Virus record (IMG/VR): IMGVR_UViG_3300025133_000037
Coordinates: 32,001-96,000 of that record
DNA: 64,000 bases
Direction: 5' to 3' (one strand)
Source of the DNA: a virus
Made by a program: the position numbers and the translations under genes. Of the stretch, positions 1 to 23,824 are shown piece after piece (within the stretch, counting starts at the first letter, position 1; each line of letters starts with the position of its first letter). A model generated the notes under the pieces. That model saw only the letters and a list, made by a program, of their open reading frames with translations, did not search any database and was not told the DNA's origin.

Positions 1-316
1 TATTATTGTCAGCCAATGCAGCTTCCGCAAGTACTCTTAGGTCGTCAATGACTTCGTTTTGAAGGTCATCATCTGAAGTTAAATCCTCATCATCTTCGGC
101 GCTATCAGAAGTTATTTTGCTGACTGCTTCGGCTGTAGCATTAGCCTGCTCCTCTAAGCCCTTTAATTCTTGAGTCTGCTTGGCAGCATCTTCTGCTATT
201 TTTTGCTGCAAAATATCTGCTCTACGAACTGTATCTAGAACTATCTTTTCAAGCTCTTGAAACACTTCGCTTTTATTGTAGTGAAATTTGTCTTCCTTGC
301 TCCATGAATTAGGCAT
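1..316 (-). CDS. Hypothetical acidic head-cluster protein (3' end runs off the window)
   Basis: Not in ORF track. Translated by hand from ATG at 316 with GGAG RBS: MPNSWSKEDKFHYNKSEVFQELEK...QQKIAEDAAK...DSAEDDED...IDDLRVLAEAALADNN, open to position 1. Confidence 0.8.
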   Translation of the reverse strand, partial: MPNSWSKEDKFHYNKSEVFQELEKIVLDTVRRADILQQKIAEDAAKQTQELKGLEEQANATAEAVSKITSDSAEDDEDLTSDDDLQNEVIDDLRVLAEAALADNN

Positions 317-354
317 TAGTGTCTCCAGATAAATGTTATTTCATCACATTTTAA

Positions 355-364
355 ATAATTAGTA
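355..364 (-). promoter_or_regulatory. Candidate late-promoter element (TACTAATTAT)
   Basis: One of a recurring CTAWTWWW intergenic set; ~39 nt upstream of ATG 316. Confidence 0.45.
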
Positions 365-378
365 GTTTGTAAACGTCT

Positions 379-1071
379 CTATAACAGCATAAATTCTAGT
401 GTTCCGATTGCCGCCGAGGGAGGGCCGGTACACACTGCTACGCCAGGATGATTATCAGTCGGTTGGGACGAGGTTAACTTTCCGTCTAACCCAACATATA
501 ATGTGCAATTTACAGGAAACATTTGAGTTGTATCAAACTGATCTGTTGCATATATACCTCTTTGATAATGGATGGTGATTCTTCCGCTGCCGACAGTTGT
601 ATCATCCCCCGGCTTTCCAGCTATTCTATATATATAATTGGTAACTATCTTAAAGCTATCATATGTCCCATCACCTGATGAATCATAATTAAGCTCTGTT
701 CCAGACGGCACAGTTATAACTCCATTAACAGTATTCAATACAATTGAAATTGTCGAGGTAAAGCTACTCTCTATAATATGAGGAAACTCCAAAACACCAG
801 TGACTTCAACTGTACTAACCCGATTCCCATTATCATCTATTTCTGATGATTGGGCATCAATAATTACAACCTCATCTACTTGAGCCCTTGTGAAAGCCGA
901 AGTTCTTACGTCATCAATAATGCCCAAAGGGGCTGTACCATCACTTACACTTGCCACAATATCATTCCCAATTAAGCCTAATTGAGCAAACATTCCTGGC
1001 TCAAACTCGGCTGTTGGGTCAACAGACAAGCTCATTGGTAATGCATTTCCGCTATGAATAACCTTTAGCAA
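379..1071 (-). CDS. Putative capsid decoration/cement-like structural protein
   Basis: 230 aa, beta-rich; TDQFDT and LYVGLDGKLTS-type motifs plus a hydrophobic C-terminus resemble head decoration proteins; lies downstream of the protease/scaffold gene. Confidence 0.5.
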   Translation of the reverse strand: MLKVIHSGNALPMSLSVDPTAEFEPGMFAQLGLIGNDIVASVSDGTAPLGIIDDVRTSAFTRAQVDEVVIIDAQSSEIDDNGNRVSTVEVTGVLEFPHIIESSFTSTISIVLNTVNGVITVPSGTELNYDSSGDGTYDSFKIVTNYIYRIAGKPGDDTTVGSGRITIHYQRGIYATDQFDTTQMFPVNCTLYVGLDGKLTSSQPTDNHPGVAVCTGPPSAAIGTLEFMLL

Positions 1072-1096
1072 CTTGTTTTCTCCACATTAAAGTATA

Positions 1097-1129
1097 AAAA
1101 GGGAGGGAAATATTCTTTCCCTCCCTTTT
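1097..1129 (-). terminator. Intrinsic terminator-like hairpin
   Basis: AAAAGGGAGGGAAA-TATTC-TTTCCCTCCCTTTT, a perfect 14-bp inverted repeat; T-run follows on the minus strand. Confidence 0.75.
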
Positions 1130-1133
1130 ATTT

Positions 1134-1147: not shown

Positions 1148-1160
1148 ATTAATCTCTGTC

Positions 1161-1724: not shown

Positions 1725-4700
1725 CTACTCCCACAAAGATGATAAGGTATCAGCGGACATCAGTCTTGGGCTAACGCCTACACCATTGTCTGCTTCAACG
1801 CCAATGTTTACTCCGCCAAGGTCTGACGCTACTTTAACGGTACCTACTGGTCTTGCGTTTGCAATACTTCGCTTGAAGGCTTCAAATGCATTATCATCAA
1901 AGGTCATGATATCATCAACCTGTCTATCTAAAGACGCCTTTGATGCGGGCAAAAGACCCTTTCTCTGCATATCCATTCCGACATCATATGCCCTGCGCAA
2001 CTTCACTCGATAAGCCTCTCTTGCCTCATCTTGCTTCTTAGTCTCAACCTTATTGGCCAAAGCTTCTTTTACAGGATTTGCTACAGCGGTCTTCTGCGAG
2101 GCCTGATGAGCCTTGGACGCCTCTGCTTGGAGTTCATCGCCATCGTCATCAACTTCGGATACAGCCGCTGGAAAATCATCTAAAGCATCTTCTGCAACCT
2201 CATCACCTTCGTCGTCCATATCCATAGCGGACTTCAACATAGCTTCGCGATTTGCTGCGCGACTTGCCAAAACTCGATCATCAGCCTGCTTTAAAATAGC
2301 TTCTCTTCGAGATTTGCGCAAACTCATAGCAGAAGCGATAAGCTCATCAACAGCCGCATCCTCTGCGGAGTCTTCAACGTCATTTACGTAATCTTCTTCG
2401 CCAGCGTCCAAAGCATCTTCTGCATAATTAACCGAATCTTCTACATTATTGGAGCTAGTTACATTCGCCTCTAATGACGTAGCAACACGTACCAATGCCT
2501 TAGTTTCTCCAGTGATTTGGTCAGCATCTCTAACGGCATGACTTGCCAGCTTGACAAACTCCCCTCTCTGAGAGGATGATAGCTTTGAAATATTATCATA
2601 GGTTTCTGCAACCATTGATAACTCATCTGCAGCATCATCAAGCTTTCTATAAGCAGTCTTAAGGTTCTTTATAACATTGCTAGAAAGAGCTCCTAAGCCA
2701 GCCTCTATTTGCTCACCCTCTTCGCCCTCGCCCTTGCCGGTGAAAACGTTGACATCTACATCGGCCATAGTTGAATCTTCAAGTTGGCTAACATAATCTC
2801 TAACTTCATCCAAAAGCTGCTCCATCTCTGCAAGTCTATCGTCAATCTCCTTTGAGGGATCTTCCTCTTCGTCTTCGCCCTCTCCTTCGGCACCTTCGTC
2901 CAATGGAGGCAGGGGCTCGGCATCTAATGGAGGCAATTCTCCGCCGCCTTCTCCGCCTTCCTCAGGAAGAGGGGGAAGTTCTCCGCCGCCCTCTTCAGGA
3001 AGAGGAGGAAGTTCTTGAGCGGCCTTTAAAAGACCAGCAACTCGGTCTAATCCCGCAACTCGTATCTGGCCGCAAACTTCTTTGCCGTACTCACGGCTCT
3101 TTAGCCATTCCCAATTTTCATTTAATTCTGGGCCAAAAATTTCTTGCCCAGTAGCGGCAATTACTCTTTTGTTTCCCGCAAAAACTTCTAAGACACTCGC
3201 GGCCTTATTTACAGACCCATTTCCATTGCGCCTAACTGTAAAGCGCGTACTGAGACCAGGACCATTATAAGCCCTAGCTCTACTCACCTTCTCTTTAGAC
3301 TCCTTGTCTCCGGGCCACATGCCATCAGTTCCGCCCATATTTCCATCTTGATGCATCTGCTTATCTTTATTCCAGTCATATGTTTCACCCTTATAGGTGT
3401 TAGGCTCAGCACCTTCGGATCCGCCCTGCATGTAGGCTAACCTGCGGAGTCTTCGCTCCTCAAGCTTTGCCCGACTGAGCTTCTCCTTAGATTCCTTATC
3501 GCCTGGCCACATACCATCTGCACCGCCTGTGTTTCCATCTTGATGCATCTGCTTATCTTTATTCCAGTCATATGTTTCACCCTTATAGGTGTTAGGCTCT
3601 GCGCCCTCAGAGCCACCTTGCATATAAGCGATTCGACGGCGAAGCTCTGCCCTTTTTCTTAGTCTTGACTCATTCATAATATCCTCCACGATTGAATTGA
3701 TTGAAAAGTCGTCCACAAAATCCATGCTATCACCGCCATCATTAGCCGTCTTAACGTTTCGATTTTGCTTACCGGTAGCTACCGTCACAGCTTTGCCGCC
3801 TGACGGATTATTAAATGATAAAATATCATCTCTTGGTGAAAAATCAGGGTTATCCCCGGTATCTCCACCTCCTGCGAGACCCATCCTGGATGTTGCAGAA
3901 CTTAACTCTGCGCCACCGCCAGGAGTTGAGGCCTCATTGGAATTCTCATAAGAAGTAAACCTCTCAGTTGGTGTTTCTGAAAGGTCTTCTCTTGTTGTTG
4001 TTTTTAACTGACTTACTAACTGACGTATAACGTCTTTTATATCATCCTCTACGGACGGATCGCTCAGAAGTCCTGCCGCTCCAGTTGTAGCCTTTAACGC
4101 CTCGGCATTATTTCGCATTTTTTCTGAGCTATCAGTAAAGTTATTTTCAGAAACTTTTAAAAGACCATTATTTGATAAAAAACTTTTTACAATATTTGTC
4201 CGATCCTCTATGGAGCAACCGCCTAATCCACAGGCAGTTTTCATTATTCCCTCTAAATGTTTGGCCTGATTAAGGTTTAATCTTCCAAGCATAGCGCTAA
4301 CGTTGTCTACTCCATAGGTCGAAAATTCTTCTTTATACTCATTTAATGAGGCAATGCACTTTAAAAGAATAGCGCCAGGCTCTGCCGGCTGAACAACAAG
4401 GCTATACTCTATCGGCTTTAAGCCGACATTTATTTCACCATGAGCATTTTTATTTGTTATATGATTGCAATACTCATCTTGATTTGTAGCTCGATTTCCA
4501 CAATCAGAACAAATAGAGGTTTCAACCGCAGTTCCCATAGAGCCATATCTAACAAGGCCTGTCTCGACTTTGCGTGCCAAATCTGGATAATTAATCTTGT
4601 CTAACGCGCAAAGCCCAATTACCTGCTTATACTTTTCATCATAATGTGTGTCTAAAATTATTCCACGAATTCCATCTACCGAGCTTGACTCATGGTCTCT

Positions 4701-5066
4701 GCATAGTGGAAGACCCACCCAGCTTGCCGTAGCTTTTTTTAATTCTGATTCTGGAAATATGTCTTTATTGTTATTTCTATGTGGCTGAACATTCCCGTGC
4801 CATTTCCAATTTTCATCAAAAAAGCCCCAAGCATCTTCTCCTGCTACTTTTTTGATGGAACCATTATCATCAAGCAGGGAGGACTCTGCGGCTTTTAGAA
4901 AGATTATAGAAAAATAAAGAAAGTCGTCTGACTTTGGAGCTATATTTTTAATGCTTTTTGCTAACTTAGAAAATGTTTGAACTATCTTTGGATTTGCAAT
5001 AATTTCATCGTGGTCACAGGTCCCAACAACATTGTTCTCTGGAGAAGAACATATTTTTTTAAACAT
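1725..5066 (-). CDS. Prohead maturation protease (HK97/assemblin-fold) fused to a long acidic scaffold-like region
   Basis: N-terminal NNNKDIF...LCRDH...GSMG...SICSDCG...CNH...EIN...EYSLVVQPAEPGA pattern typical of phage prohead proteases; followed by ~800 aa of acidic coiled-coil and low-complexity sequence; downstream of portal. Confidence 0.7.
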   Translation of the reverse strand: MFKKICSSPENNVVGTCDHDEIIANPKIVQTFSKLAKSIKNIAPKSDDFLYFSIIFLKAAESSLLDDNGSIKKVAGEDAWGFFDENWKWHGNVQPHRNNNKDIFPESELKKATASWVGLPLCRDHESSSVDGIRGIILDTHYDEKYKQVIGLCALDKINYPDLARKVETGLVRYGSMGTAVETSICSDCGNRATNQDEYCNHITNKNAHGEINVGLKPIEYSLVVQPAEPGAILLKCIASLNEYKEEFSTYGVDNVSAMLGRLNLNQAKHLEGIMKTACGLGGCSIEDRTNIVKSFLSNNGLLKVSENNFTDSSEKMRNNAEALKATTGAAGLLSDPSVEDDIKDVIRQLVSQLKTTTREDLSETPTERFTSYENSNEASTPGGGAELSSATSRMGLAGGGDTGDNPDFSPRDDILSFNNPSGGKAVTVATGKQNRNVKTANDGGDSMDFVDDFSINSIVEDIMNESRLRKRAELRRRIAYMQGGSEGAEPNTYKGETYDWNKDKQMHQDGNTGGADGMWPGDKESKEKLSRAKLEERRLRRLAYMQGGSEGAEPNTYKGETYDWNKDKQMHQDGNMGGTDGMWPGDKESKEKVSRARAYNGPGLSTRFTVRRNGNGSVNKAASVLEVFAGNKRVIAATGQEIFGPELNENWEWLKSREYGKEVCGQIRVAGLDRVAGLLKAAQELPPLPEEGGGELPPLPEEGGEGGGELPPLDAEPLPPLDEGAEGEGEDEEEDPSKEIDDRLAEMEQLLDEVRDYVSQLEDSTMADVDVNVFTGKGEGEEGEQIEAGLGALSSNVIKNLKTAYRKLDDAADELSMVAETYDNISKLSSSQRGEFVKLASHAVRDADQITGETKALVRVATSLEANVTSSNNVEDSVNYAEDALDAGEEDYVNDVEDSAEDAAVDELIASAMSLRKSRREAILKQADDRVLASRAANREAMLKSAMDMDDEGDEVAEDALDDFPAAVSEVDDDGDELQAEASKAHQASQKTAVANPVKEALANKVETKKQDEAREAYRVKLRRAYDVGMDMQRKGLLPASKASLDRQVDDIMTFDDNAFEAFKRSIANARPVGTVKVASDLGGVNIGVEADNGVGVSPRLMSADTLSSLWE
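3276..3630 (-). repeat. Intragenic tandem duplication, 192-nt (64-aa) period, 2 copies
   Basis: AYMQGGSEGAEPNTYKGETYDWNKDKQMHQDGNxGGxDGMWPGDKESKEKxSRA occurs twice; 3340-3407 is identical to 3532-3599. Confidence 0.95.
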
Positions 5067-5335: not shown

Positions 5336-5337
5336 AA

Positions 5338-7629
5338 TTACTCCGCTAAAATTACTATACCCAATATATTAGAAGTAATATATTCTTTCGTACGGTCTAA
5401 GGTGGTCTTAAGATCTTCTAATGTTGATTCTGTATTTTTTGTTTTTTCAGTTAAACTCTCAGCAAAATTATCAGTATCAATTATTGATATTAAATCAAAA
5501 ACTTCCTTTATAGATTCCGATAGACTCTTTGCAGAGAGGGCCGCAGAATCAATTATCTCTGCAGTGGTAGAGACATCTTTTATTGAGTTTAATATTTTTA
5601 TTCCATTTTTAATATTAATTAAAAGCCTTTTCGTTATTCTGGAGTTTCTTTTGCATGATTGATGATACTCCCCCTTGCTGCCGGCTACAGCCTCAGCCTC
5701 TCCCTTGATTTTTTCATACTCTTCTATATTCTTGTTTAAGTTTTCTATCAAGGTGCTGCACATATCATATGATCTTCCAAAATAACGCAAAGCATTTTTC
5801 GCTTCACTTTTGACACCATCTGGAACCGGAATTCCCGCAGACTTAATAATATTACCCGCACGCACAACTACGTTATGCTTTGGATATCTGCCTTTAATTG
5901 CTGAGAAAATATCTTTTGTCCCATAATGTGATGGAACCTGAATGATTTCTGGCTTAATAGCAAAGTTAGAGCTTCCCATCCGAACCTTAACCTCTTCCTC
6001 TAAAAGCCTGATTAAGACGCCGGGGTCCTTGTCCCCTCTTGATGCAAAAACAATTTTAGTCGTAACATCCTTTGACGCCTTATATAATTCGTCTACAAAT
6101 AATATTTTGTTATTATTTTTTAAAATATTATTTTGCAAATATTCATTTAAATTAATTGAGTATTTTGAATTTATTTTTTTATAAAAATCTTTTTTAATCA
6201 AATCTGATAATGAAACTTTTATAAAACCTCCACAAGCAGAGAATGTCTCTCCATATAATCCCCGGGCTATCCGAGCATTATGCGCAGGGGGCGATTGCCT
6301 ATACAGCCTTACCTCTTCATCCGAAAGCAAAGAGTCAAGGTCAAAAACTAATACTTGGCTCTTATGGGAAATGCTTGATGATGCATTTTTAACTATTGAA
6401 TGTATTTGGCTTTGATTTTCTTTGTTATTTATTATATATAAATTATTTCCAGAGATCTTATATAAGCCTGTATCTAAAGTTTTGGAGGTTTTGAATATAC
6501 ATCTGTTTAGACCAAGCTCATCTAGCGCAAAGGCCTCTTTTGCAAAGCGCTCTCCAGATCGCTCTCCATACCTTATATGAATTGAGTCCAATTCTTTAAT
6601 ACCAAGGGTGTCTGACAATCCTCCGGATATTTCCAAAACAGCCTTGGTGCCAGCGCAAGAAAAAACCTCTAATGATCCAGGCATAATATTTTTATATAAC
6701 TTTTTTATCCTATTATCTTCATCAATGAACGCTATATCAATGGGGAAGCTAACGGTGCCCATGTGAAAAAAAGCATCAGTAGGCTTCTTATATGGAAATA
6801 ATAATCCCGATCTATCTCCAAGGTTTGAATAAACCTGTAGACCATCAATTTTTTCTTTAGAAGTTATAGCAACATCGCATTCAAAAGAAATTTCAGACCC
6901 ATCTTTTGAATTATAATGTTTTACTGTAGCTATCTTGTCTAATTCGTTTTTTTCAACTAAATATTTTTTTATTGATCCAAAATGTTTTGCCACAATAGAA
7001 AATCCAATATTTTTAATTGAGTCAGAAATATCAATAGATCCAGAGGAAATTACAAGCCCATATCCAGTAGGTCTTAAGTGTGAGTAAATATTTTTTAAAG
7101 TAATTTTGGCAACTTCTTTATCATCAATTGCTTTGGACATATAAAATCCATCAAACTTTCTTCCAAAAGAATGGAACATAGGGTCACCATATTCCTGGTG
7201 ATAGTCCTGTATATTTATATTGTCTGACGAATGCTTTAGCAAGGTCACTAGACTATGACCATCTTTTAATAAAATATCTGTATCCATATAAGTGTGAGGG
7301 CCCAGACCTAATACGGCAGAGTCTTTCTGTAAAAAATTTCTAAACTTATTAGAAAAATGGGAAAGAACCTCTAGATCATCCTCCGCCTCATCTTCTGCCA
7401 CCTCTTCTGCCGCCGGGAAGAATACGCCTCCCGAGAAGCTTATTGGCACCTCCAGGTCGTGAGACAAATGTTTTTCAGAAGTCATTGTGCTGTATCCTGG
7501 GGTGGAAGTGTCCCTATCCATATCCCCGGGCAAAGCTTCCTGTATATCAAAATCAGTATCCCCCGATGGAGACATTGATCCCATTTCTCTCTCTGTATCT
7601 CCTATATATGGCCACGACACTTTTCTCAT
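5338..7629 (-). CDS. Multidomain protein containing a DUF192 domain
   Basis: 763 aa; VA-x-T-x-x-E-x-x-x-GL...GLLF...FHMGTVSFPIDIAFID...AVLEISGG is the DUF192 signature; C-terminal coiled coil. Confidence 0.75.
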   Translation of the reverse strand: MRKVSWPYIGDTEREMGSMSPSGDTDFDIQEALPGDMDRDTSTPGYSTMTSEKHLSHDLEVPISFSGGVFFPAAEEVAEDEAEDDLEVLSHFSNKFRNFLQKDSAVLGLGPHTYMDTDILLKDGHSLVTLLKHSSDNINIQDYHQEYGDPMFHSFGRKFDGFYMSKAIDDKEVAKITLKNIYSHLRPTGYGLVISSGSIDISDSIKNIGFSIVAKHFGSIKKYLVEKNELDKIATVKHYNSKDGSEISFECDVAITSKEKIDGLQVYSNLGDRSGLLFPYKKPTDAFFHMGTVSFPIDIAFIDEDNRIKKLYKNIMPGSLEVFSCAGTKAVLEISGGLSDTLGIKELDSIHIRYGERSGERFAKEAFALDELGLNRCIFKTSKTLDTGLYKISGNNLYIINNKENQSQIHSIVKNASSSISHKSQVLVFDLDSLLSDEEVRLYRQSPPAHNARIARGLYGETFSACGGFIKVSLSDLIKKDFYKKINSKYSINLNEYLQNNILKNNNKILFVDELYKASKDVTTKIVFASRGDKDPGVLIRLLEEEVKVRMGSSNFAIKPEIIQVPSHYGTKDIFSAIKGRYPKHNVVVRAGNIIKSAGIPVPDGVKSEAKNALRYFGRSYDMCSTLIENLNKNIEEYEKIKGEAEAVAGSKGEYHQSCKRNSRITKRLLINIKNGIKILNSIKDVSTTAEIIDSAALSAKSLSESIKEVFDLISIIDTDNFAESLTEKTKNTESTLEDLKTTLDRTKEYITSNILGIVILAE

Positions 7630-7669: not shown

Positions 7670-7969
7670 TCATAATCTTCTTAACAATTCGTTTAATACG
7701 ACATTTATAAAATATGGGTCTTTTCCGTTCAAAACATTCTTGACCAATCCGATGCTAACCCCTATGGCTGCTCCTCCCGGAGATTTTTTGCCAGCTATCT
7801 CCATAACATTAAATAACGAAACCTTGCCATGCACGTTTTGAAAAGACTTCATCCTTGACTCTGGAGACATATTATTTATCATAATCTTTATCATATTATG
7901 CAATTGCTCAGCAACATATACTGCATTTTGCTCAAGCATTTGTGCTTCTTTTTTTAATTCATCGGACAT
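7670..7969 (-). CDS. Hypothetical protein (start revised to MSDELKK)
   Basis: ATG at 7969 overlaps the end of the upstream gene; 99 aa; LKKEAQ motif. Confidence 0.7.
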   Translation of the reverse strand: MSDELKKEAQMLEQNAVYVAEQLHNMIKIMINNMSPESRMKSFQNVHGKVSLFNVMEIAGKKSPGGAAIGVSIGLVKNVLNGKDPYFINVVLNELLRRL

Positions 7970-9988: not shown

Positions 9989-9989
9989 A

Positions 9990-14073: not shown

Positions 14074-14081
14074 TATAACCT

Positions 14082-15580: not shown

Positions 15581-15606
15581 AATGCTAATACCCTATAAAG
15601 AAAAAA

Positions 15607-15616
15607 AATATTAGTA
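15607..15616 (-). promoter_or_regulatory. Candidate late-promoter element (TACTAATATT)
   Basis: Upstream of the run leading to terminase and portal. Confidence 0.45.
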
Positions 15617-15619
15617 AGT

Positions 15620-16435
15620 CTAAGACTCAATGTTCTTCAGCTCATAATCAGTCATATTAATAGCGTCATCCAAATATTTGTTTACAAGCTTTCGCTTAAT
15701 AAGCTCTTCTTTAAATCGACCTATCATCGGAACCATCGGCAGCAAACCCATCTCGACCAAATAATGCATCGTTATGTCTGCATTAGCCTCAATGGACTCC
15801 CCAATTAATGAGGTCAAAAATGCATCCTTTAATTTCCATCTGTTTTCACCCGTAAAAGAGCGTCGATTGTTTTGGGCATATTGCACAATATCCCCATCTA
15901 TTTTAAAGTTAAGTCTTGCAGCAAAATTTACTGCTCTAAAAATCCTTCTTACATCATCCTGCAAAGTAATCTTTGCGGGGACGCAAGTTTTTATCAGCTT
16001 GTTATCTAAATCTCTAAAACCATTGTTGGTCGGATCTATAAGGCCGTCTTTCAAAAGCTTCTGATGTAAAGTGTTTATAGTAAAATCTCTACTATAAACC
16101 TCAAAAAGCTTCCGATCTGTTATTCCAAGATCTTGCTCCAAAAAGCTTATAACATCACTGGAAATAAAATTACTTGAAAAATCTAAAGTTTTATTTTCTA
16201 AAAAAACAGAAATATGACTATCTGAGAATACCTTAAATGCTTTTTTTAATTCATAAGCAGACGTAATTCCCAGGCGGGTGGTGCCACTATCATTGGTTGT
16301 TATATCAATATCTCTAAAATCATTTTCTCTATTTAAATAAATATCTCGCGGAATACCACCAACTATGTAAGGCTCTGATATATAGTTTTCCTCACATATT
16401 CTGAATATTTTTAATAAAATATCATTAAGGCCCAT
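15620..16435 (-). CDS. Class II nucleotidyltransferase (CCA-adding enzyme / poly(A) polymerase family)
   Basis: YIVGGIPRD, DIDIT, RDFTIN, DDVRRIFRAVNFAARLNF motifs; 271 aa with no HD domain. Confidence 0.85.
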   Translation of the reverse strand: MGLNDILLKIFRICEENYISEPYIVGGIPRDIYLNRENDFRDIDITTNDSGTTRLGITSAYELKKAFKVFSDSHISVFLENKTLDFSSNFISSDVISFLEQDLGITDRKLFEVYSRDFTINTLHQKLLKDGLIDPTNNGFRDLDNKLIKTCVPAKITLQDDVRRIFRAVNFAARLNFKIDGDIVQYAQNNRRSFTGENRWKLKDAFLTSLIGESIEANADITMHYLVEMGLLPMVPMIGRFKEELIKRKLVNKYLDDAINMTDYELKNIES

Positions 16436-16458
16436 CTCTTCTCCACTAAATATTAAAA

Positions 16459-18042
16459 TTATTCAACGGGCGGCTCAATAACATCGCCAGAATCTTCAAG
16501 AACAGGCTCCGGCTCTTCCGCCTGCAAAGTCTCCTCTAATGCCCCAGGAATATTTGTCGATTGAGCATTGGCCAAAGCCTTTGCGTTTGAAAGCTGCCCC
16601 ATCATCTTCGTAACTCTTGTTAGAGCGTATGAAAAAGCATCAATTAATTTACTCTGAGATTCTGCTAGCTCCGGGAACATAGACGCAATACCTATCTTAT
16701 CTAACATGATATCAAATTCGGCAAGCTGTCTAATTATCCTTCTATCCGCCAACATGCCGGCAACTTCGTCCAACTTTTTTGCCGCATCCTCAAGGCTTAT
16801 ATCTCCGGCAAGCGCTTCATACTCGCCCGGCTGAGCACCTGGTATTGGCGTTATATCCTCAAGACTTGCCGGATCTACATCATCTGATTTTGGAATCATA
16901 TTTTTTGGATCATTTGGATCAGTTTCCGGCTCCTCTGGTAATGCAGAATTTTCCGGAACAACGCCCTCTTCTAATGCCCCAGGAATAGAAGCCTCTTCTT
17001 CGGCCTGGCCCTCTGGAGGCATCAGAGCCTGTTCGCTTGGAAGACCTTGTTCTTCCGGAATCTCTTGGGCTATTTTTGTCAAAATATCTGCAGCATTAAC
17101 ATGACCATGCTTATTAAGGGTTCCTGCAGCCTTGTGTGTTACGTCAGAAAGGGTTGCTCCCAACTTTAGCTGATGAACTTGAATACTTAAGTTCAAAAGA
17201 TGTTCTGCAAGCACCCTGTATTCATCCGCCTTAATATACTCGTCAGATCTTAATAACTTATCAATTCTACGGATTGCGCCATGTAACCTGGTCTTCCAGG
17301 CTCCGAATTGCCTGGAATCTTCAGCCGCCCCAACGGCACTAACAGCGGCTCTGTCAAAAGTTATATCCCCAAAGCTATCTCCCGGCATATTATTCCCGGT
17401 ATTTTTATCCAAATAGGCGCTTCCACTTCCGGCATAATAAGGGTTATTCCCCTGCCCAAGGTCTCCTAGGTAAATTGCTTTCTTTTTCATATTCTGTTCC
17501 TCTTCTGAACTGTATTTTAAATGCTCTCCAGAGCTGTAATACTCAAACCATTTTTTAAACTTAATATCTTCATCTTCGTCTATATTCAAAAAATTACTAT
17601 AATAATCTAAAGCATTTTGTTTTGTCATCTCATTGCTTTCTACCGCATTATAAATATGATGAACAACCTTTAGCCACTTACCTAGATCAAACTCTTCTCC
17701 TATAACCTCTCCCGTTCTTCCCGGATTAGGATATGCCAACTTTTTTATTCCTGATTTATTAATTTTTGATTCAACTATTTTATAATATGCATCATTTTTG
17801 CTTTTTATATCAAAATTAATTATTTTTTTTATTTCATAATCAGATATTTTAGCCCCAATATCCCTTGCTGCAGATTTTATTACAAAATATCTTTTTAACT
17901 TTGCCTCATTATCTATTCCAATAGACGACAAAATAACAGCTCTTTTTGCAAGCTCTTTAAAAGATTCTGAATATTCTCCTGCAGATATAGCGCTCAACTT
18001 ATCCATAAAAAACTTATTTACCCTGACCTCTTGCTTAGACAT
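16459..18042 (-). CDS. Hypothetical protein, probable head/core component (start revised to MSKQEV)
   Basis: 527 aa; overlaps upstream stop; several K-x-A motifs; Pro/Glu linker; helical C-terminal domain. Confidence 0.8.
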   Translation of the reverse strand: MSKQEVRVNKFFMDKLSAISAGEYSESFKELAKRAVILSSIGIDNEAKLKRYFVIKSAARDIGAKISDYEIKKIINFDIKSKNDAYYKIVESKINKSGIKKLAYPNPGRTGEVIGEEFDLGKWLKVVHHIYNAVESNEMTKQNALDYYSNFLNIDEDEDIKFKKWFEYYSSGEHLKYSSEEEQNMKKKAIYLGDLGQGNNPYYAGSGSAYLDKNTGNNMPGDSFGDITFDRAAVSAVGAAEDSRQFGAWKTRLHGAIRRIDKLLRSDEYIKADEYRVLAEHLLNLSIQVHQLKLGATLSDVTHKAAGTLNKHGHVNAADILTKIAQEIPEEQGLPSEQALMPPEGQAEEEASIPGALEEGVVPENSALPEEPETDPNDPKNMIPKSDDVDPASLEDITPIPGAQPGEYEALAGDISLEDAAKKLDEVAGMLADRRIIRQLAEFDIMLDKIGIASMFPELAESQSKLIDAFSYALTRVTKMMGQLSNAKALANAQSTNIPGALEETLQAEEPEPVLEDSGDVIEPPVE

Positions 18043-18280
18043 CCTTCTCCAGCCTCTCCAGTAACTCATCGATCTTATCGAGCCACTTCCTTTTTTCCGC
18101 CACCCTTTGGTCCTTAGCCTGTTCCTTGAGATAAGTCAAGTGCTTTATTAAGTTATTATTTGGAATCTTTTTATCATCATCATATATAGTTAAATTATCC
18201 TTAAGCCACTCGCTAAATCCTGCGATGCTACTAAGATTTTTAAACTCAAAAACCCTATGTATCTTTCCATCAATCAACAT
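18035..18280 (-). CDS. Hypothetical protein
   Basis: 81 aa; overlaps both neighbours in operon fashion. Confidence 0.65.
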   Translation of the reverse strand: MLIDGKIHRVFEFKNLSSIAGFSEWLKDNLTIYDDDKKIPNNNLIKHLTYLKEQAKDQRVAEKRKWLDKIDELLERLEKDV

Positions 18281-18956
18281 CTATTATTTCTCCTTTGATA
18301 ATTTCTGGCGTACGACCATTTAAATGATTCATTTTTAATTCTAAGTTATTAACGAATACAGGTACAAGCTCTGGGCTTAATTCCTGCAAAACATCCAATA
18401 CAGTTTCCTTTAATATTCTTGCCTGCTCATTAACTACATTAATATTAATATTATGTTCAATCTTTTTATCAGCAACTCCCTCTATATATTTCTTCCAATC
18501 TTGCATAATATTCTTCATAGCGTTAATGTATTCAATAAAAATCTTATCTTCCCTTAGGGATCCGCCCTCTTGTAACAGATTATAATAGTATTCTATCCTT
18601 GAGCTTATCAGGCTATCCATTTCTAATAGACGCTTTGCAACATCTAGCTCAGACGTTGCAATTTCCTCAATCTTTTGCTGGTAAGAAGATGACGCCTTTA
18701 TAATCATTCTTGCCTCAGCTTCTGTCGCCTCCTTGTCCACCTGAACCCGTTTATTTTTTATATCATCAAGCATCTCCCCTCTTAGATTGAGGTGCTCTCC
18801 TCTAAACTTTTGCAACGTCATATATGAAATATGAAGACGCCTTGTTCTGGGATATTTATTCCTCAGCCATCCTTCGACCTGCTTCACAGAATCGCCTTCT
18901 AATAGCATTTTTATAATATCTTCTTTATCTGGGTGGTTTAAAATTTTCTTGCTCAT
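18270..18956 (-). CDS. Putative terminase small subunit-like protein
   Basis: N-terminal HTH-like segment (KILNHPDKEDIIKMLLEGDSVKQVEGWL), central coiled coil and beta-strand HNININV; first gene of the run leading to terL. Function is inference. Confidence 0.4.
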   Translation of the reverse strand: MSKKILNHPDKEDIIKMLLEGDSVKQVEGWLRNKYPRTRRLHISYMTLQKFRGEHLNLRGEMLDDIKNKRVQVDKEATEAEARMIIKASSSYQQKIEEIATSELDVAKRLLEMDSLISSRIEYYYNLLQEGGSLREDKIFIEYINAMKNIMQDWKKYIEGVADKKIEHNININVVNEQARILKETVLDVLQELSPELVPVFVNNLELKMNHLNGRTPEIIKGEIIDVD

Positions 18957-19018
18957 ATATGCCTCAAAGCTTAACTACATTCTACTAAGCTAAAATGTTA
19001 TATTAAATATTTTAATTA

Positions 19019-19588
19019 TTAGTTTCCCTTCCTCATCGCTCCCGCCGGAGGCAAGGAGTAAAATATAATATCATCAGATTCCTGTTGACTAGAGCCATTT
19101 TCTTCTGAAAACATAAATTCTTCAGGAATATCATTGTCCAAAGATGAGGCTACAACAACTTCTCCCGCAATTATCCTCTCGACTATAGCTATGACTAACT
19201 CATGCATATCGGTACTATACGGAAGCTTATACGCACGAACTCCATTCATTCTATTGTTTTCAAAGGTTAACAATCTCATTTTTGATTCAGGCCAAGATTC
19301 TCCATCTTGGCCTTCTGCCCAAAAGTATATAGCCCCTCCTACCCCCCTTGCCTCATCAGGCTCCTGGGCCAATGCCCAATACACCCTGTATTCTTCCGGC
19401 ATTAACTGGGTTGTCGGCCATCCATAAAAATTTTCAATAGAAGATATGGTTGACACCGAAAAGAGTAAGGCCACAAGAATGACTCCAGACTTTAAGATCC
19501 AATTGCCCTTTAGGCCTATTATTAGCCACAAAAGTAATGAAAATAATATAACAAATGATATAGTCAATCCCATCTTGACATACTCCAC
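19019..19588 (-). CDS. Membrane protein (2 N-terminal TM helices)
   Basis: Hydrophobic N-terminus, then GWPT...GAIYFW...RAYKLPYS; third gene of a membrane triad. Confidence 0.75.
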   Translation of the reverse strand: MEYVKMGLTISFVILFSLLLWLIIGLKGNWILKSGVILVALLFSVSTISSIENFYGWPTTQLMPEEYRVYWALAQEPDEARGVGGAIYFWAEGQDGESWPESKMRLLTFENNRMNGVRAYKLPYSTDMHELVIAIVERIIAGEVVVASSLDNDIPEEFMFSEENGSSQQESDDIIFYSLPPAGAMRKGN

Positions 19589-20184
19589 GGCCTTTCCCCG
19601 ACCTTTCTGACAAGATCTTTCTCTAAGTTACTAATGGATATCACATCTCCATTGGAATTCAAAGTTATTCTACACACCGTCTCTTCTTGGCCTCTTCTCT
19701 CCAAGGTTATTGTCTCCAGCAAAACCGTAGAAAAGGGGTTCATCTTATCAATCTGCACTGTAACCATGGCCGGCTCTGGCACTCTTTTTGAATACATATG
19801 TAAATTCAAAACATATTCTCCAGGCATTACCTTTCTTATCGTTACGATTTCTCTATTTTCCTTATATTCAATTATACCAAACTCTGTTTGCACTGCATCA
19901 TGATTTCCGCCTAAATCATCCCTATCTAAATGTATCAGACTAGTCTCTTTGTTGCCAAAATAAATCACATTTCCTTGTGGATCCTGAATGTAAGTGTCTA
20001 TATCATCAGTGACATCCTCTGGCCAAGATATTGTTATTAAAAAATCTGCATGAACATCAACTTTTCCCTCATCGCTAACAGGGTTGACCAAAACAAAAGC
20101 AACAACAAAAAGGGCAGCGAAGCATAGTAGTGTATTAAATAAAAGGTCTAAAAATGCAACATTTGTATTGTATGTTCGCTTCAT
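19564..20184 (-). CDS. Single-TM protein, ExbD/MotB-like anchor plus YfaP/DUF2135-like soluble domain
   Basis: AFLDLLFNTLLCF TM helix with Asp; DIDTYIQDPQG...LDRDDLG...ENREIVTIR...PGEY. Confidence 0.6.
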   Translation of the reverse strand: MKRTYNTNVAFLDLLFNTLLCFAALFVVAFVLVNPVSDEGKVDVHADFLITISWPEDVTDDIDTYIQDPQGNVIYFGNKETSLIHLDRDDLGGNHDAVQTEFGIIEYKENREIVTIRKVMPGEYVLNLHMYSKRVPEPAMVTVQIDKMNPFSTVLLETITLERRGQEETVCRITLNSNGDVISISNLEKDLVRKVGERPWSMSRWD

Positions 20185-20186
20185 CC

Positions 20187-20714
20187 CTAATCACCGCCTA
20201 CGCCTTGACTTAAAATAAAATATTGTATTTTTAACAAAATGCTGCACACAAGGCCTACCAGTGTCGTGTATAAAGCCGTGGACATTCCTAGGCCAAGGTC
20301 TCTGATTAGGGCCTGCACCGTTTGGGTGTCGTCAACGTTTAAGGTTGCAAACCCACCTAGCATAGATATAAACCCGATAACAGTTCCTACCATTCCTATC
20401 GACAGAAATAAATCACTCATAAACCAGCCGGACTCTATACTTTCCCTTATATCTTTGCCTCTCAGTATGTTTATATTTTCTCCATAATAGCCAACGCTCC
20501 ATGTCTGTATACCGCAGATTGCTGATTGTATATAAAATAATGATAATATCACAAAGCTTAACTTTGTTACGTCATTATCCCATACTGTATGAAAAACATT
20601 GCCAAAAAAACAAAAGCCTGTAAAAATAGCTATTAGCAATACCATTAGCCACCATTTTAAAAATAATTTATGCTTGACTATTTCGTCCTTACCCTTTTTT
20701 ATTCTCTCATTCAT
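20187..20714 (-). CDS. MotA/TolQ/ExbB proton-channel family protein
   Basis: IGMVGTVIGFI...GMSTALYTTLVGL signature of the ExbB/TolQ TM helices. Confidence 0.85.
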   Translation of the reverse strand: MNERIKKGKDEIVKHKLFLKWWLMVLLIAIFTGFCFFGNVFHTVWDNDVTKLSFVILSLFYIQSAICGIQTWSVGYYGENINILRGKDIRESIESGWFMSDLFLSIGMVGTVIGFISMLGGFATLNVDDTQTVQALIRDLGLGMSTALYTTLVGLVCSILLKIQYFILSQGVGGD

Positions 20715-20727
20715 GTTTTCCCCAAAC

Positions 20728-20766
20728 TAAAAAGTCCCAGCTTTATATTACTATAAGCCGGGACTT
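20728..20766 (-). terminator. Intrinsic terminator-like hairpin
   Basis: Minus strand AAGTCCCGGCTT-ATAGTAATATA-AAGCTGGGACTT-TTT. Confidence 0.75.
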
Positions 20767-20792
20767 CAATCGTTTAAAAAGTAATTTAATAG

Positions 20793-21764
20793 CTATTCTT
20801 TTGTTTTCTTAATCAGTGAATCTAAATAATCAGCCTCTTTGGTCAAGCCATTTTCGTCCAAATGCGTAGAAAATGTAATTAAATTATTTACAAGCTTAGA
20901 GGCAGTGCCTACGAGCGGCCAGCCAACATCAAGAATAGCGACCTCTTCGTCTGTTAAGTTTGAGTTATTCACATCACGAAGCCTATCTGAAGTCAGTTTG
21001 TAGTCGGAAGACGGGTCCTCATGAGCCTCAAACAAAGATGCAAGTTCAGCCGTAGTTAAAGGCCTGTTTTCACGTGCAGATGCTCCAGAGGAATCTAAGC
21101 CCAAAGCCTCTCGAACACTAGGGGTGCTTCTGTCTACATCTGCAAAATCATCTCTTCGCCAGCCAAGGTCAAAGAGCTTTCCTATCTCCTCAGTAGAAAG
21201 CGCATCATCTGGGTTAGGCCCTCCTACGGAGACATAGCCACCTGCAGCCTTCTTTATCAATGAATCTAAATAATTCGCCTCTTTAACCAAACCCTTTTGA
21301 TCCAAATGATTTGCCATATGCATCATGCTAGATTGAAGCGCGGCACTTCCGGGAGGAAATGTGCGTCCGTCTTCGGCCTTAAAGCCCTCATTGTAATCAT
21401 AGATCTTATTGGTGTAAGGGTCTTGAAAAACTCCGTCAGAAACTCTTAGCGCCTGGACTCCTACTCGATCTGGAGAATATCTCGTTGAAAGATGTGTTGC
21501 AACACTTGGCTCTGGAACATAGGAATCTCCATGATCCGGAGATAAATTATAAAGCCCCTCTGTCGTTCTCTCAGGAGGCTCGCCGCCTCGCTGAGAAAGA
21601 TATCTTTCTCTTGTCGCATATTCTGTAACATTTGATTGAAAATGCTGAAATGCACCATGCTGATCAGCGTCAGCTATTTTTTCCAAAAACCTTAAAGAAT
21701 CTTTTCTTTCACTTTCGTCAGCAAATGATTCAAAGCCTTTTAATTTTTCGAGTCTAGAATTCAT
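20793..21764 (-). CDS. Hypothetical protein with duplicated helical module
   Basis: 323 aa; HLDxxGLxKEAxYLDSLIKK occurs twice; LSTRYSPDRVG core. Confidence 0.8.
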   Translation of the reverse strand: MNSRLEKLKGFESFADESERKDSLRFLEKIADADQHGAFQHFQSNVTEYATRERYLSQRGGEPPERTTEGLYNLSPDHGDSYVPEPSVATHLSTRYSPDRVGVQALRVSDGVFQDPYTNKIYDYNEGFKAEDGRTFPPGSAALQSSMMHMANHLDQKGLVKEANYLDSLIKKAAGGYVSVGGPNPDDALSTEEIGKLFDLGWRRDDFADVDRSTPSVREALGLDSSGASARENRPLTTAELASLFEAHEDPSSDYKLTSDRLRDVNNSNLTDEEVAILDVGWPLVGTASKLVNNLITFSTHLDENGLTKEADYLDSLIKKTKE

Positions 21765-21773
21765 TTGTTTCTC

Positions 21774-23333
21774 CTATGAAAGTGAAATCTTTGAAGAAGA
21801 TATCATAGCCCCTGTGTCACTTAGGTTGCCACCCTGCTTGCTCCGGCTCATCGGAACAGGGCGTCCCTTAGCGTCAAAGGCTACCTTGCTTACCGGCAAT
21901 CCAAGTTTGGGACAGTAAAGCTGAACAGAGGTCGGAACCTTTATTAAATCGCCATTATCAAAAGCCGCCTTAATAAGGGCGTCTCTCTCTGTGCTTCCCG
22001 AGGAGTGCTTTAGCAGCTTAGAAAATCTATCTAAAGCAGCAAGATGTTGCCCTCCTTCAAATTTTTGACCAATAACCAATACGGCATCTTCTGCCTGTTT
22101 GTAATTTCCATTAGCTACACCTGAATCAATTTGATCTATAAGCTGAGAATAAGACAAACGATCCATCTCCTCTATCTCTCTAGACACCTTATTTATACTA
22201 TCAACTAGGCTTGCTCTTCCCAGCACAGATTGCAAACCCGTTTTGTCCAAAGGATACGAGCTACCATCTACTGCGAATTTCGTAGGAATAATGGGTCTGC
22301 CATTTGGCATATCTATAACCACTGATGCTTCAACCTTGCCTTTGGCAGATGGAATATCTGCAAAAAAAGTCAAAGACTTATCAGAGGAGGAGGCGACACG
22401 TACTTGTGGGTTTAAAATCCCTAAGCTAGAAAACTCCAGGGCAACAACATTGGTTGCCATCCTCACTTGGTCTCTAGAAAAAGACGCTGCCGCCGAAACT
22501 AATTCATTTTCTAAATTTGTATACTTTCGCAAAGAAGCAGGGACAACGGCGGCATCCATTTGAAGCTCACCAAATTCTCTCTGGCCTTCAAACTTATTCT
22601 TTGCAGCCTTTTGTATAAAATTATTCTTATCTTTAATAAAGACATAAAGATTCTCTTTATTAAGCTTTACCAACTGATCGCCCTGCACAAATGCCTGCGG
22701 CAAAGCAGGGATTCCATTTGTTACTTGGACGGGAATGGGGACATTAACCTGAGTATGATCTGACGTATCAAGAGACGCATTACATAGAATGAAGTGCTCA
22801 TTTGTCCTTATCGCCTTAACGTCCGTTGGAGGACAGCCTAGAGCTATCATTTGTAACTTCGCAAACTTTTCAGCCTTTTTTACAAGATTATCAGATATAG
22901 TAGAAAAAGCTGCCTTTTGCTCTAATGAGAAAACTCCCGCCAATTCCTTCGATAACTCACTGTCTCCATACAGAGGTGTTAGCCTTTCTTCATACGGAAC
23001 TCTTGCTGCAGAAGCCCCCTTTGCATCAGCCATAACCGAGGCATGTCTCACCGGAAGCAAGTCTTCAAGCTCTTGTCTGAAATTAGAACGACCACCGGAG
23101 AGCCCATACAGGTGGTCATAAACTTCTGAAATTTCTCTTTGAGTAATAAAGTTTTGCTTTGAAGCCCTAGTCTCTATAACGTCACGCATGTGGCAGATAA
23201 GAGCATCTCCAGAATTATTATCAGCCGCCTTTTGCAAGCGACTTAAAACATAGCCTGAAGAAAAGGTCTTACCTTGGGTTATATTTTCTAGAGCCTTCTT
23301 CGCCTGCTCTGCAATCTTTTGTATCTCATTCAT
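21774..23333 (-). CDS. Hypothetical protein with internal domain duplication
   Basis: 519 aa; AAGGA RBS; two similar beta-rich units ending NG-x-P-x-x-P-x-x-F. Confidence 0.8.
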   Translation of the reverse strand: MNEIQKIAEQAKKALENITQGKTFSSGYVLSRLQKAADNNSGDALICHMRDVIETRASKQNFITQREISEVYDHLYGLSGGRSNFRQELEDLLPVRHASVMADAKGASAARVPYEERLTPLYGDSELSKELAGVFSLEQKAAFSTISDNLVKKAEKFAKLQMIALGCPPTDVKAIRTNEHFILCNASLDTSDHTQVNVPIPVQVTNGIPALPQAFVQGDQLVKLNKENLYVFIKDKNNFIQKAAKNKFEGQREFGELQMDAAVVPASLRKYTNLENELVSAAASFSRDQVRMATNVVALEFSSLGILNPQVRVASSSDKSLTFFADIPSAKGKVEASVVIDMPNGRPIIPTKFAVDGSSYPLDKTGLQSVLGRASLVDSINKVSREIEEMDRLSYSQLIDQIDSGVANGNYKQAEDAVLVIGQKFEGGQHLAALDRFSKLLKHSSGSTERDALIKAAFDNGDLIKVPTSVQLYCPKLGLPVSKVAFDAKGRPVPMSRSKQGGNLSDTGAMISSSKISLS

Positions 23334-23344
23334 TGTTAAATTCC

Positions 23345-23824
23345 TTATTTATTTTCTTTGAATATATCTGGAAAAAGGCTTTCTATAGCGCTTACCTTGG
23401 CTTTAGCCTGAGACGCTATAACTTTCTTTAAAAAGCCTACATCGGTGGATGCCACATCCAACAGGGCTGACTTGAACGTAAATATGTCTTCTCCATCAAA
23501 TCCGTAATCTTCTGAAGAAAATGCACATATAGGGACATTCTTATATGACAGCGTTACATTGTTATAATCATAATTGCTATCTGCGCTCCAGTCGCCGCCC
23601 TCTTTTCTTTGATATTGAGGGTCTGAACTTCTAACTAAAAAAGAATCTCCATCAATACTTTCGACCTTCCATAGGTCGTCATATTGATCTCCAAAAACTT
23701 TGTACATATCAAAGGCGACCTTTTTTAACTTTAAATCATCACTCATTGGAATTTTGTCTTTACCTGATAAATCAGAAGACTGCTTTTTTGAAAGCTCTAT
23801 AAGAACCTTGTCCAGATCTGACAT
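23345..23824 (-). CDS. Hypothetical protein
   Basis: 159 aa; GAGGAG RBS; LKKVAFD motif. Confidence 0.8.
   Translation of the reverse strand: MSDLDKVLIELSKKQSSDLSGKDKIPMSDDLKLKKVAFDMYKVFGDQYDDLWKVESIDGDSFLVRSSDPQYQRKEGGDWSADSNYDYNNVTLSYKNVPICAFSSEDYGFDGEDIFTFKSALLDVASTDVGFLKKVIASQAKAKVSAIESLFPDIFKENK

Follow-up and report, generated by a model that had tools for sequence, protein, structure and literature searches.

The short motif K-x-A is concentrated, in one orientation only, in head genes of a phage genome, and it is predicted to mark the sites cut by the prohead protease of this phage. The stretch of DNA analysed (hereafter the window, 64,000 nucleotides) corresponds to bases 32001–96000 of a 131,661-bp single contig, IMG/VR virus record IMGVR_UViG_3300025133_000037, on which nearly every gene lies on the minus strand. 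Its source is a 131.7-kb phage, a distant relative of Bacillus phage G. An initial annotation, made from the letters alone, had read the open reading frames (ORFs) at 1–23824 as a head block carrying [hydrophobic/K]-K-x-A motifs, and had proposed that a protease-scaffold protein encoded at 1725–5066 cuts about 12 co-encoded proteins after this motif. This interpretation is partly supported. The K-x-A signal itself is real, conserved and lineage-wide. In a sharper form, [LIFM]-x-K-x-A, it is likely, judging from sequence statistics and structural models, to be the cleavage motif of a prohead protease that would process multiple substrates during capsid maturation.

Enrichment of K-x-A in the window

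The test set consisted of the 23 ORFs of 1–23824 (7781 amino acids, aa), and the null of 300 shuffles within each protein. K-x-A was found 67 times, against 39.6±6.1 after shuffling (z 4.5), and none of the 300 shuffles reached 67. In the form given by the initial annotation, [ILVFMK]KxA, the counts were 36 versus 13.6 (z 5.8). The reversed pair A-x-K was not enriched (35 versus 39.5), and the sibling pairs KxS, KxG, KxE, KxL, RxA and ExA all had absolute z values below 1.5. Replication ORFs at 24384–50067 contained 49 KxA versus 43.1 expected (z 1.0), and the 34 ORFs of the window outside the test set (13271 aa) contained 61 versus 56.3 (z 0.7). When all 400 X-x-Y pairs were scanned, KxA tied with PxP at the top (z 4.4). 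All 35 pentapeptides that the initial annotation had given as examples were present in the named minus-strand ORFs, translation confirming the coordinates for most of them.

The form [LIFM]-x-K-x-A came from alignments and was refined after the data had been seen. It occurred 38 times in the 23 ORFs, versus 8.5–8.7 expected (z 9.8–10.6; 0 of 400 shuffles), and 11 times versus 12–13 elsewhere in the window. In the annotated motif, the hydrophobic residue is better placed two positions before the K. The excess of [LIFM]xKxA persisted when shuffling was restricted to windows of 10 or 20 residues, and look-alike helix patterns were only weakly raised, by at most about 1.4-fold ([LIFM]xExA 13 versus 9, [LIFM]xKxL 14 versus 11, [LIFM]xRxA 7 versus 5). 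On these two grounds helix periodicity was discarded as the principal explanation. A signal at the DNA level, for instance for methylation or packaging, was rejected as well, because codon use at the K and A of the motif equals that elsewhere (P 0.74 and 0.45), which points to selection on the protein and not on a DNA motif.

The excess was unevenly distributed. At least one KxA was present in 15 of the 23 ORFs, and most of the excess came from four of them: the protease-scaffold gene (17 versus 7.0 expected), ORF 21774–23333 (12 versus 3.7), ORF 20793–21764 (5 versus 1.3) and the portal gene (6 versus 2.7). KxA was absent from ORFs 379–1071, 8507–10144, 15146–15580 and 18035–18280, from the large terminase gene (TerL), and from three membrane-protein ORFs at 19019–20714. 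With eight ORFs devoid of the motif and the excess in few, the statement that nearly every orphan of the block carries it was too strong.

Mapped over the genome, [LIFM]xKxA was abundant from the major capsid protein (MCP) gene to ORF 14082 (28 versus 6.4), in ORFs 15146–23824 (15 versus 3.1), and in a second cluster at genome positions 104600–111481 (13 versus 2.2). The tail side (7 versus 4.7) and the replication block (15 versus 14.8) showed no such excess. The presumed early region (genome 111573–131661, 38 small proteins) was depleted of it, with a single occurrence where 6.6 were expected. Similarly, the 545-aa orphan encoded at 8507–10144 contains no KxA where 2.9 were expected, and TerL none where 2.5 were; this may reflect avoidance of the motif in non-substrates. 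The start of ORF 8507–10144 probably lies further downstream, since the ORF as called overlaps the portal gene by 155 nucleotides.

The ends of the motif are more conserved than its middle

A scan of IMG/VR with the 1113-aa protease-scaffold protein gave 25 related loci, at 46–86% identity, from which 18 orthologue families were built. For 44 KxA pairs of the reference, the joint conservation of K and A was 0.703, as compared to 0.416 for all 5968 pairs (rank 3 of 170 among pairs with n ≥ 15), and the middle residue was kept at 0.524. The resulting difference between joint and middle conservation, +0.179, was the highest of all pairs, the controls (AxK, KxS, KxE, KxL, ExA, RxA and others) lying between −0.09 and −0.24. 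KxA was the only X-x-Y pair of the 18 families whose ends were more conserved than its middle. Many sites formed conserved islands amid poorly kept flanks, for example IKKVA, LNKMA, IVKNA, IIKSA, ILKSA/S, LLKAA/Q and TVKVA/S. The alignment logo has L, I, F or M two residues before the K (63%), a free middle position, and S, E, A or Q after the A.

The same pattern was seen at larger distances. In an alignment of 100 protease-scaffold sequences, K and A at the sites K34, K681 and K1078 were kept in 90%, 83% and 61% of the 71 most distant rows (about 30% identity), and the middle residue in 28%, 15% and 6%. In a very divergent 895-aa neighbour, [LF]xKxAD was kept in 13 of 13 homologues. The two sequence checks proposed with the initial annotation, enrichment over shuffles and replication ORFs and conservation in homologues, therefore both came out in its favour; these were all the in silico refutation tests that it had named.

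Recurrence in distant phages

A HMMER search with the protease domain retrieved 1575 representatives at E ≤ 1e-3, and most of the top 150 were fusions of 1000–1500 aa. KxA was above expectation in each of 112 distant full-length proteins (2301 versus 1463.7 in total). In 114 scaffold tails, from which the protease domain had been removed, KxA was found 1844 times versus 1154.3 (1.60-fold) and RxA 598 times versus 421.9 (1.42-fold), the reversed AxK staying at 1128 versus 1154.3 (0.98-fold), with KxS at 0.85-fold and KxG at 0.62-fold.

Among cultured phages, the products gp2 to gp21 of phage G contain 55 KxA versus 27.8 (z 5.5) and 20 [LIFM]xKxA versus 5.7 (z 6.3); gp24 to gp50 are flat for KxA (13 versus 12.1). 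In the head module of mycobacteriophage Myrna, [KR]xA occurs 68 times versus 45.1 (z 3.9). Myrna gp97 (1211 aa), annotated as a tape measure, has 15 KxA and 16 RxA versus 7.3 and 8.1 expected. Because its N-terminus matches the prohead protease domain, and because its gene lies just upstream of that of the major head protein, with gp98 in between, gp97 is likely a misannotated protease-scaffold fusion. A KxA bias was looked for in the head proteins of phiRSL1 and none was seen; there it is VxA that is enriched in the head module (42 versus 25.5, z 3.3). The K-x-A specificity is thus not common to every phage with a match to this protease, and the P3 preference may, from these counts, differ within one protease family.

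As a control of the method, the same scan was applied to the T4 head module (gp20, gp67, gp68, gp21, gp22, gp23 and gp24). It ranked IxE first and LxE fourth of the 400 pairs, and the reversed pairs were flat. Published work documents that T4 gp21 cuts after I/LxE (PMC12991175) and that the protease gp245 of phage SPN3US, with a preference for Ser at P1', cuts after A-x-E (PMC10052503). Since the scan recovered the known gp21 motif, and SPN3US offers a second case in A-x-E, the signature to expect of a prohead protease motif is a directional pair that head-module proteins carry in excess.

Could the motif be a functionless by-product, arising from amphipathic-helix periodicity in K- and A-rich proteins, from paralogous repeats, or from its choice after the sequence had been read? 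The scaffold and internal proteins are helix-rich in AlphaFold2 (AF2) models, the coiled-coil SbcC protein of the control set has 7 KxA versus 3.5 expected, and the T4 head proteins have a mild KxA excess (25 versus 16.7, z 2.0). We find this explanation very improbable. Reversed and sibling patterns are flat or raised about 1.3-fold, the signal survives local shuffling, and KxA alone has ends more conserved than its middle. The bias repeats in phage G, in Myrna and in the 114 distant tails, where AxK is not raised. Site placement is also biased to N-termini: of the 56 sites in the motif-rich groups, 19 are within the N-terminal 40 residues, versus 6.5 expected (P about 1e-5). Conservation, local shuffles, tails and the two cultured phages together largely refute a by-product.

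A protease-scaffold fusion between portal and capsid genes

The presumed enzyme is encoded by ORF 1725–5066 (minus strand, 1113 aa). The initial annotation had called it a protease-scaffold, and this is borne out by a match of aa 112–210 to phrog_18299, 'head maturation protease' (E 3.9e-13), and by the predicted fold of a domain at aa 45–262 (4281–4934, minus strand), delimited by AF2 and Foldseek. The model of aa 1–300 has a mean predicted local distance difference test (pLDDT) of 84.1. Its six best Foldseek matches in the PDB are three chains of T4 gp21 (5jbl; probability 0.96–0.99, template modelling score to target 0.48–0.50) and the proteases of Epstein-Barr virus (EBV), pseudorabies virus (PRV) and herpes simplex virus 1 (HSV-1), and the protease of human cytomegalovirus (HCMV) ranks ninth. 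The gene order along the minus strand is TerL (11693–13462), portal (9990–11690; phrog_16240, E 3e-49), protease-scaffold, and MCP (genome 27489–28592, just outside the window; phrog_2522), which places the protease gene between portal and MCP in the head module. The models suggest that ORF 1725–5066 encodes a capsid maturation serine protease of the T4 gp21/herpesvirus assemblin fold, fused to a long scaffold.

H125 and S176, the latter within VSMG, are invariant in 102 and 100 sequences and are candidate counterparts of the catalytic residues of gp21. E211, C186, C189 and C200 are also invariant in 100–102 sequences. The three Cys lie in aa 186–203 (window 4458–4511, minus strand), and both the alignment consensus and phage G gp19 have a His at the second position past C200. 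From its residues, this cluster looks like a small metal-binding insert, of which we know no counterpart in T4 gp21.

In the full-length AF2 model (pLDDT 67), the protease domain is followed by a confident fold at aa 600–684, long helices and disordered linkers. Several conserved sites are found along this chain. FSKLA (K34–A36; 4959–4973, minus strand) is N-terminal to the protease domain; it is the K34 site of the distant alignment described above. IMKTA/C (K276–A278; 4233–4247, minus strand) follows immediately after the domain, at the end of helix 265–277 and before a coil; it is invariant in 17 of 17 close homologues, is not alignable in distant ones, and by its place in the model is a candidate release site. 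LLKAA/Q (K681–A683; 3018–3032, minus strand), with K kept in 93%, A in 94% and the middle residue in 15% of 99 homologues, closes the folded domain before a Pro-rich linker, the disordered stretch 684–733 coming next. TVKVA/S (K1078–A1080; 1827–1841, minus strand) lies where the disordered stretch 1079–1096 begins, with 33 aa left to the C-terminus. K and A are present there in 16 of 17 close homologues and the middle residue varies, and the model makes it a candidate maturation site. Further scaffold sites, NVKTA (K439), NLKTA (K803), FVKLA (K839) and ILKQA (K926), all within 2283–3758 on the minus strand, have joint K and A conservation of 0.65–1.00 in the 17 close homologues. A complex prediction of protease aa 40–265 with aa 664–705, around K681, weighs neither way (score 0.01, mark 0.32).

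The consensus of the scaffold family also contains a tandem unit, K.AY.QGG...EP.P...Y......R...DKQM, present twice, each copy starting with KxA.

Predicted cleavage: after Ala or after Lys

If the motif is cut, two bonds have to be considered. We lean, on sequence grounds, towards a scissile bond after the Ala, with a hydrophobic residue at P5, Lys at P3 and Ala at P1. Pro is absent from four residues before the hydrophobic position through to the residue after Ala (A+1), and comes back at A+2. Ser is enriched 2.4–2.7-fold at A+1, and S, Q, Y, E or A often follow the Ala. Both features favour Ala at P1. The Ala is exchanged for S or G, as in IKKV[A/S] or in the K-x-[A/G]-S of portals, and in the phiRSL1 capsid protein I-Q-A/A aligns to K-Y-A/S, the Ala being kept and the basic residue not. 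The enriched pair in T4 is likewise P3–P1.

The same protease could instead cut the same motif after the Lys, the hydrophobic residue then being P3, Lys P1 and Ala P2', which would be a charge-reversed copy of the T4 motif L/I-x-E. In this arrangement the spacing of P3 and P1 in [LIFM]-x-K is that of T4 I/LxE, and LxK is itself enriched. K is exchanged for R at conserved sites, and R stands for K in the GC-rich Myrna, which fits a basic S1 pocket. The HK97 capsid protein is cut after a Lys. Furthermore, mass spectrometry based on trypsin would hide cuts after Lys, which could explain why the motif has gone unreported. On the other side, it would be unusual for P2' to be an invariant small residue and for Pro to be missing as far as P3', the exchanges of Ala for S or G and the Ser right after it resemble a P1/P1' pair, and the phiRSL1 alignment retains the Ala and not the basic residue. 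A cut after Lys is the less probable of the two, though not by much, and would be a variant of the same explanation rather than a separate one.

Site placement and a recurring module

Some sites sit where a substrate would be expected to be accessible, and others do not. K276, K681 and K1078, the key scaffold sites, are at helix ends beside disordered segments in the AF2 model, and K34, K471, K803, K839 and K926 are within predicted helices. In addition, at least 6 proteins contain, N-terminally, internally or in one case C-terminally, a recurring module of about 28 residues with the consensus EL.KLA..L...G....AD.LD..I.K.A. Two copies are found in ORF 20793–21764, one in ORF 7959–8510, and N-terminal or internal ones in four proteins of the distant cluster. 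By analogy with the capsid-targeting sequence of T4, this helix-turn-helix-like module may be a propeptide that directs proteins to the capsid and is then clipped off at a cleavage site at its end; cleavage may not be the sole role of its copies, and targeting may be another.

These observations bear on a second alternative, in which the motif is a short linear element that is not cut at all. Placed on an amphipathic helix or in a helix-turn-helix module, it would bind the scaffold, the portal or the capsid protein, and so dock proteins or target them to the capsid. The recurrence of the module and the five sites within predicted helices speak for it, as does the C-terminal helix-turn-helix by which the P22 scaffold binds coat protein. 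Most of the conserved sites nevertheless lack the module: K681, K1078, portal K62, IVKYA of the MCP, K27 and K158 of a 184-aa head protein, and the sites of a 763-aa protein. Three constrained positions over five residues, with drifting neighbours, look like an extended substrate and not like a helical interface, and a single scaffold has up to about ten conserved copies. Sites at linker borders and N-termini are as in the substrates of T4, phiKZ and SPN3US (PMC10052503). We consider pure docking unlikely, and a cleavage motif the better account of the sites as a whole.

The second motif-rich cluster, at genome 104600–111481 and hence outside the window, consists of 6 orphan proteins, several of which start with the EL.KLA...I.K.A form of the module. 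One of them has a weak lysozyme or tape-measure-like match. From their sequences, these are candidate head proteins, packaged or ejected, whose genes lie apart from the head module.

Other proteins carrying the motif

About 13 ORFs of the window have at least one conserved site, close to the 12 substrates first estimated; the MCP and the second cluster, however, extend the set beyond the range then given. All the genes described in this section are on the minus strand. The 184-aa acidic head-module protein (1161–1715) carries IKKVA/Q (1629–1643, K27) and LNKMA/T (1236–1250, K158). Over 15 homologues, joint K and A conservation is 0.87 and 1.00 at these two sites, that of the middle residues 0.00 and 0.27, and that of the flanks 0.23 and 0.32. 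The 763-aa protein (5338–7629) has an internal DUF192 domain (aa 250–351; Pfam E 7e-18). Its sites LDKIA (6928–6942), FAKEA (6532–6546), IVKNA (6382–6396) and IIKSA (5836–5850) have joint values of 0.70, 0.39, 0.83 and 0.83 in 23 homologues, with flanks at 0.14–0.39, and those at K232 and K364 bracket the DUF192 domain. Two small ORFs at 7670–8510, of 119 and 183 aa, are fused in 3 relatives; their LKKEA/Q (7943–7957) and IKKVA/E (8175–8189) are both kept as K-x-[ASG] in all 23 homologues (joint 1.00; middle 0.17 and 0.22).

The N-terminal sites of the portal protein are ISKKA/A (11646–11660) and ILKSA/S (11499–11513, K62). K-x-[ASG] is kept there in 0.87 and 0.96 of 23 homologues, and the middle residue of the K62 site in 0.04. 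About 20 residues separate the K-x-A/S of the portal from the conserved core downstream of it. Phage G gp14 likewise has MAKQA and RKMA/S in its N-terminal region, upstream of the conserved portal core, its RKMA/S falling in different alignment columns from the K-x-A/S of our portal. For the MCP, the true start places an invariant IVKYA/S at residues 21–25, upstream of the start of phage G gp27.

Further along, the 202-aa and 351-aa ORFs of 13465–15137 contain LEKNA, EEKMA, NKKSA/S and LKKEA/S, with joint conservation of 0.95–1.00. Conservation was mixed for the 536-aa, 519-aa and 159-aa ORFs, the first and the last of which have invariant IKKxA sites. The 536-aa ORF (16459–18069) carries IKKLA/Y (17734–17748), LTKIA/Q and VIKSA/A; K110 and A112 are kept in 4 of 4 homologues and the residue between them in none of the 4, and the K332 site is kept in 4 of 4. 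In the 323-aa ORF (20793–21764), two copies of the module, written here HLD..GL.KEA.YLD.LIKK and conserved in 6 homologues, are accompanied by LEKIA/D, and [LIFM]xKxA is found 5 times versus 0.2 expected. For the 519-aa and 159-aa ORFs (21774–23824), site conservation was uneven: joint values reached at least 0.8 in 5 of the 12 KxA of the former (5 homologues), and IKKVA/F of the latter was kept in 6 of 6 homologues.

Gene context

The closest cultured relative is Bacillus phage G, with 33% identity for the portal and 34.5% for the protease, gp19; Myrna-type mycobacteriophages, Rhodococcus phage E3 and phiRSL1 come next. Calling the whole of 1–23824 a head block went too far, since it includes a tRNA nucleotidyltransferase gene (15620–16435) and a gene of the MotA/TolQ/ExbB family (20187–20714, minus strand; Pfam E 5.9e-8). 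Two ORFs with hydrophobic N-termini resembling membrane segments come after the latter and form with it, at 19019–20714 (minus strand), a proton-channel-like trio, none of whose three members contains KxA.

The remainder of the window, which served as the control, holds ordinary replication and repair genes, among them a DnaE-type polymerase, RecA, Cpn60, SbcCD-like proteins and ThyX. A 2205-aa ORF found among them (34723–41340, minus strand) has no Pfam match. A pair of adjacent giant paralogues (50940–60252, minus strand; 1978 and 1120 aa) share a common N-terminus, the larger one having PKD and Ig-like domains. Judging from these domains, the pair could be fibres or adhesins, encoded amid the replication genes.

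Discussion

Several points weigh against a cleavage motif, and they are taken together here. All the support consists of sequence statistics and models. The motif was picked post hoc, and the gene set in which it was counted also contributed to its [LIFM] refinement; its recurrence in phage G, in Myrna and in distant scaffold tails meets this objection only in part. The homologues used for conservation are non-independent samples. LxK, third in the scan of 400 pairs (76 versus 48, z 4.0), fits Lys at P1 equally well. About 6 of the 38 sites in the window, and most of those in the second cluster, belong to the 28-residue module, so that motif counts are inflated by paralogy. Five of the 12 KxA of the 519-aa ORF are poorly conserved (joint at most 0.2), and several of the motif-rich ORFs of 16459–23824 are without a demonstrated link to the virion and stand beside non-head genes. 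Some copies, K58, K110 and K206 in the protease fold, K87 and K96 in the folded part of the MCP, are probably structural and not cut. As for the enzyme, Foldseek E-values are weak (3e-3 for 5jbl, up to 7e-2), no Pfam family matched the protease-scaffold at E ≤ 0.01, a sequence search of PDB chains with the protease domain gave no meaningful match, and an hhalign comparison of the protease alignment with T4 gp21 was not significant (probability 0.6%). Its membership among prohead proteases is therefore based on fold, gene position and the PHROG match.

If the motif is cut, maturation could proceed as follows. The protease-scaffold fusion would co-assemble with the capsid protein and be activated within the procapsid. 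It would cut itself behind the protease domain (K276), at the border between domain and linker (K681) and 33 residues from the C-terminus (K1078), freeing the scaffold in a way akin to the release and maturation sites of herpesvirus pUL26. The portal and some dozen minor or internal head proteins would lose short N-terminal propeptides, as probably would the MCP, at IVKYA/S. Larger proteins, such as the 763-aa DUF192 protein, would be cut at domain borders. The 28-residue module would probably act as a capsid-targeting propeptide and then be clipped off.

Such a system would share traits with three known ones. With T4 gp21, the best fold match in the PDB, it would have in common one protease for many head substrates, a directional motif of the P3-x-P1 type in the head module, the removal of N-terminal propeptides and the degradation of the scaffold; gp22, gp23, gp24, gp67, gp68 and internal proteins are the T4 substrates with I/L-x-E sites. 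The motif differs, Glu in T4 being replaced here by a basic residue and Ala, with a third position, hydrophobic, two before the K. Moreover, gp21 and gp22 are separate proteins, whereas the protease is fused here to a scaffold of about 850 aa, has no significant sequence or profile similarity to gp21, and contains the insert with C186, C189 and C200.

Herpesvirus pUL26 is closer in architecture: its fold is among the top matches (EBV, PRV, HSV-1, HCMV), its protease is N-terminal and fused to a scaffold, and in both cases one conserved site comes directly behind the protease domain and a second some 30 residues short of the C-terminus, Ala being followed by Ser at several sites. The release and maturation sites of pUL26 read V/L-x-A/S. 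Here P3 is Lys instead of Val or Leu, sites and substrates are far more numerous, the virus is bacterial, and the cut after Ala is a prediction. The phiKZ and SPN3US proteases have Glu at P1 (S/A/G-x-E and A-x-E), unlike K-x-A, and belong to a separate lineage, the portal, terminase and capsid protein being phage G-like in our case. Of these specificities, those of phiKZ, HK97 and herpesviruses are general background, and those of T4 (I/L-x-E) and SPN3US (A-x-E) come from papers. Like the protease of the system proposed here, phiKZ gp175 and SPN3US gp245 are described (PMC10052503) as cutting many head and ejection proteins at a short motif, preferably with Ser at P1', the substrates being encoded in several gene clusters.

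The closest cultured homologues, phage G gp19 (the protease), gp21 and gp14 and Myrna gp97, have the same motif bias. They differ in organization: phage G has its protease (300 aa) and its putative scaffold, gp21, in separate genes, and in Myrna, where gp97 is likewise a fusion of 1211 aa, R is used as often as K. We would give an even chance to a wider reading, in which a large and mostly uncultured lineage of big phages, covering the 1575 protease representatives and the phage G and Myrna types, has a gp21/assemblin-fold protease of basic-x-Ala specificity. The motif of this lineage, [LIFM]-x-[K/R]-x-A/S, would then be intermediate between the T4 type (hydrophobic P3, Glu at P1) and the herpesvirus type (hydrophobic P3, Ala at P1), and the head and ejection proteome, including distant cargo genes and the clip-off module of about 28 residues, could be read from the genome.

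A K-x-A or basic-x-Ala prohead specificity was found described for no phage, in a literature coverage that left the phage G mass-spectrometry paper outside. The abstract of that paper (Gonzalez et al., 2020, on the structure and mass spectrometry of phage G) reportedly names the processing of gp27 and a candidate prohead protease, and may bear on the novelty of the specificity. A 2025 multi-omics paper on phage G, in its accessible part, used strict tryptic searches and reported no cleavage sites. Should the cut be after Lys, standard tryptic proteomics would be blind to it.

Specificities have been established experimentally for only a few prohead proteases. The K-x-A motif, if it is a cleavage motif, would add a class of its own to the known specificities, in a protease family of about 1,600 representative sequence clusters, and is directly testable in the cultivated phages G and Myrna/Bxz1. 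It would provide a sequence rule predicting which head and ejection orphans are processed in phage G-like, Myrna-like and many metagenomic phages, and would link the protease-scaffold fusions of phages and herpesviruses through matching release-like and maturation-like sites.

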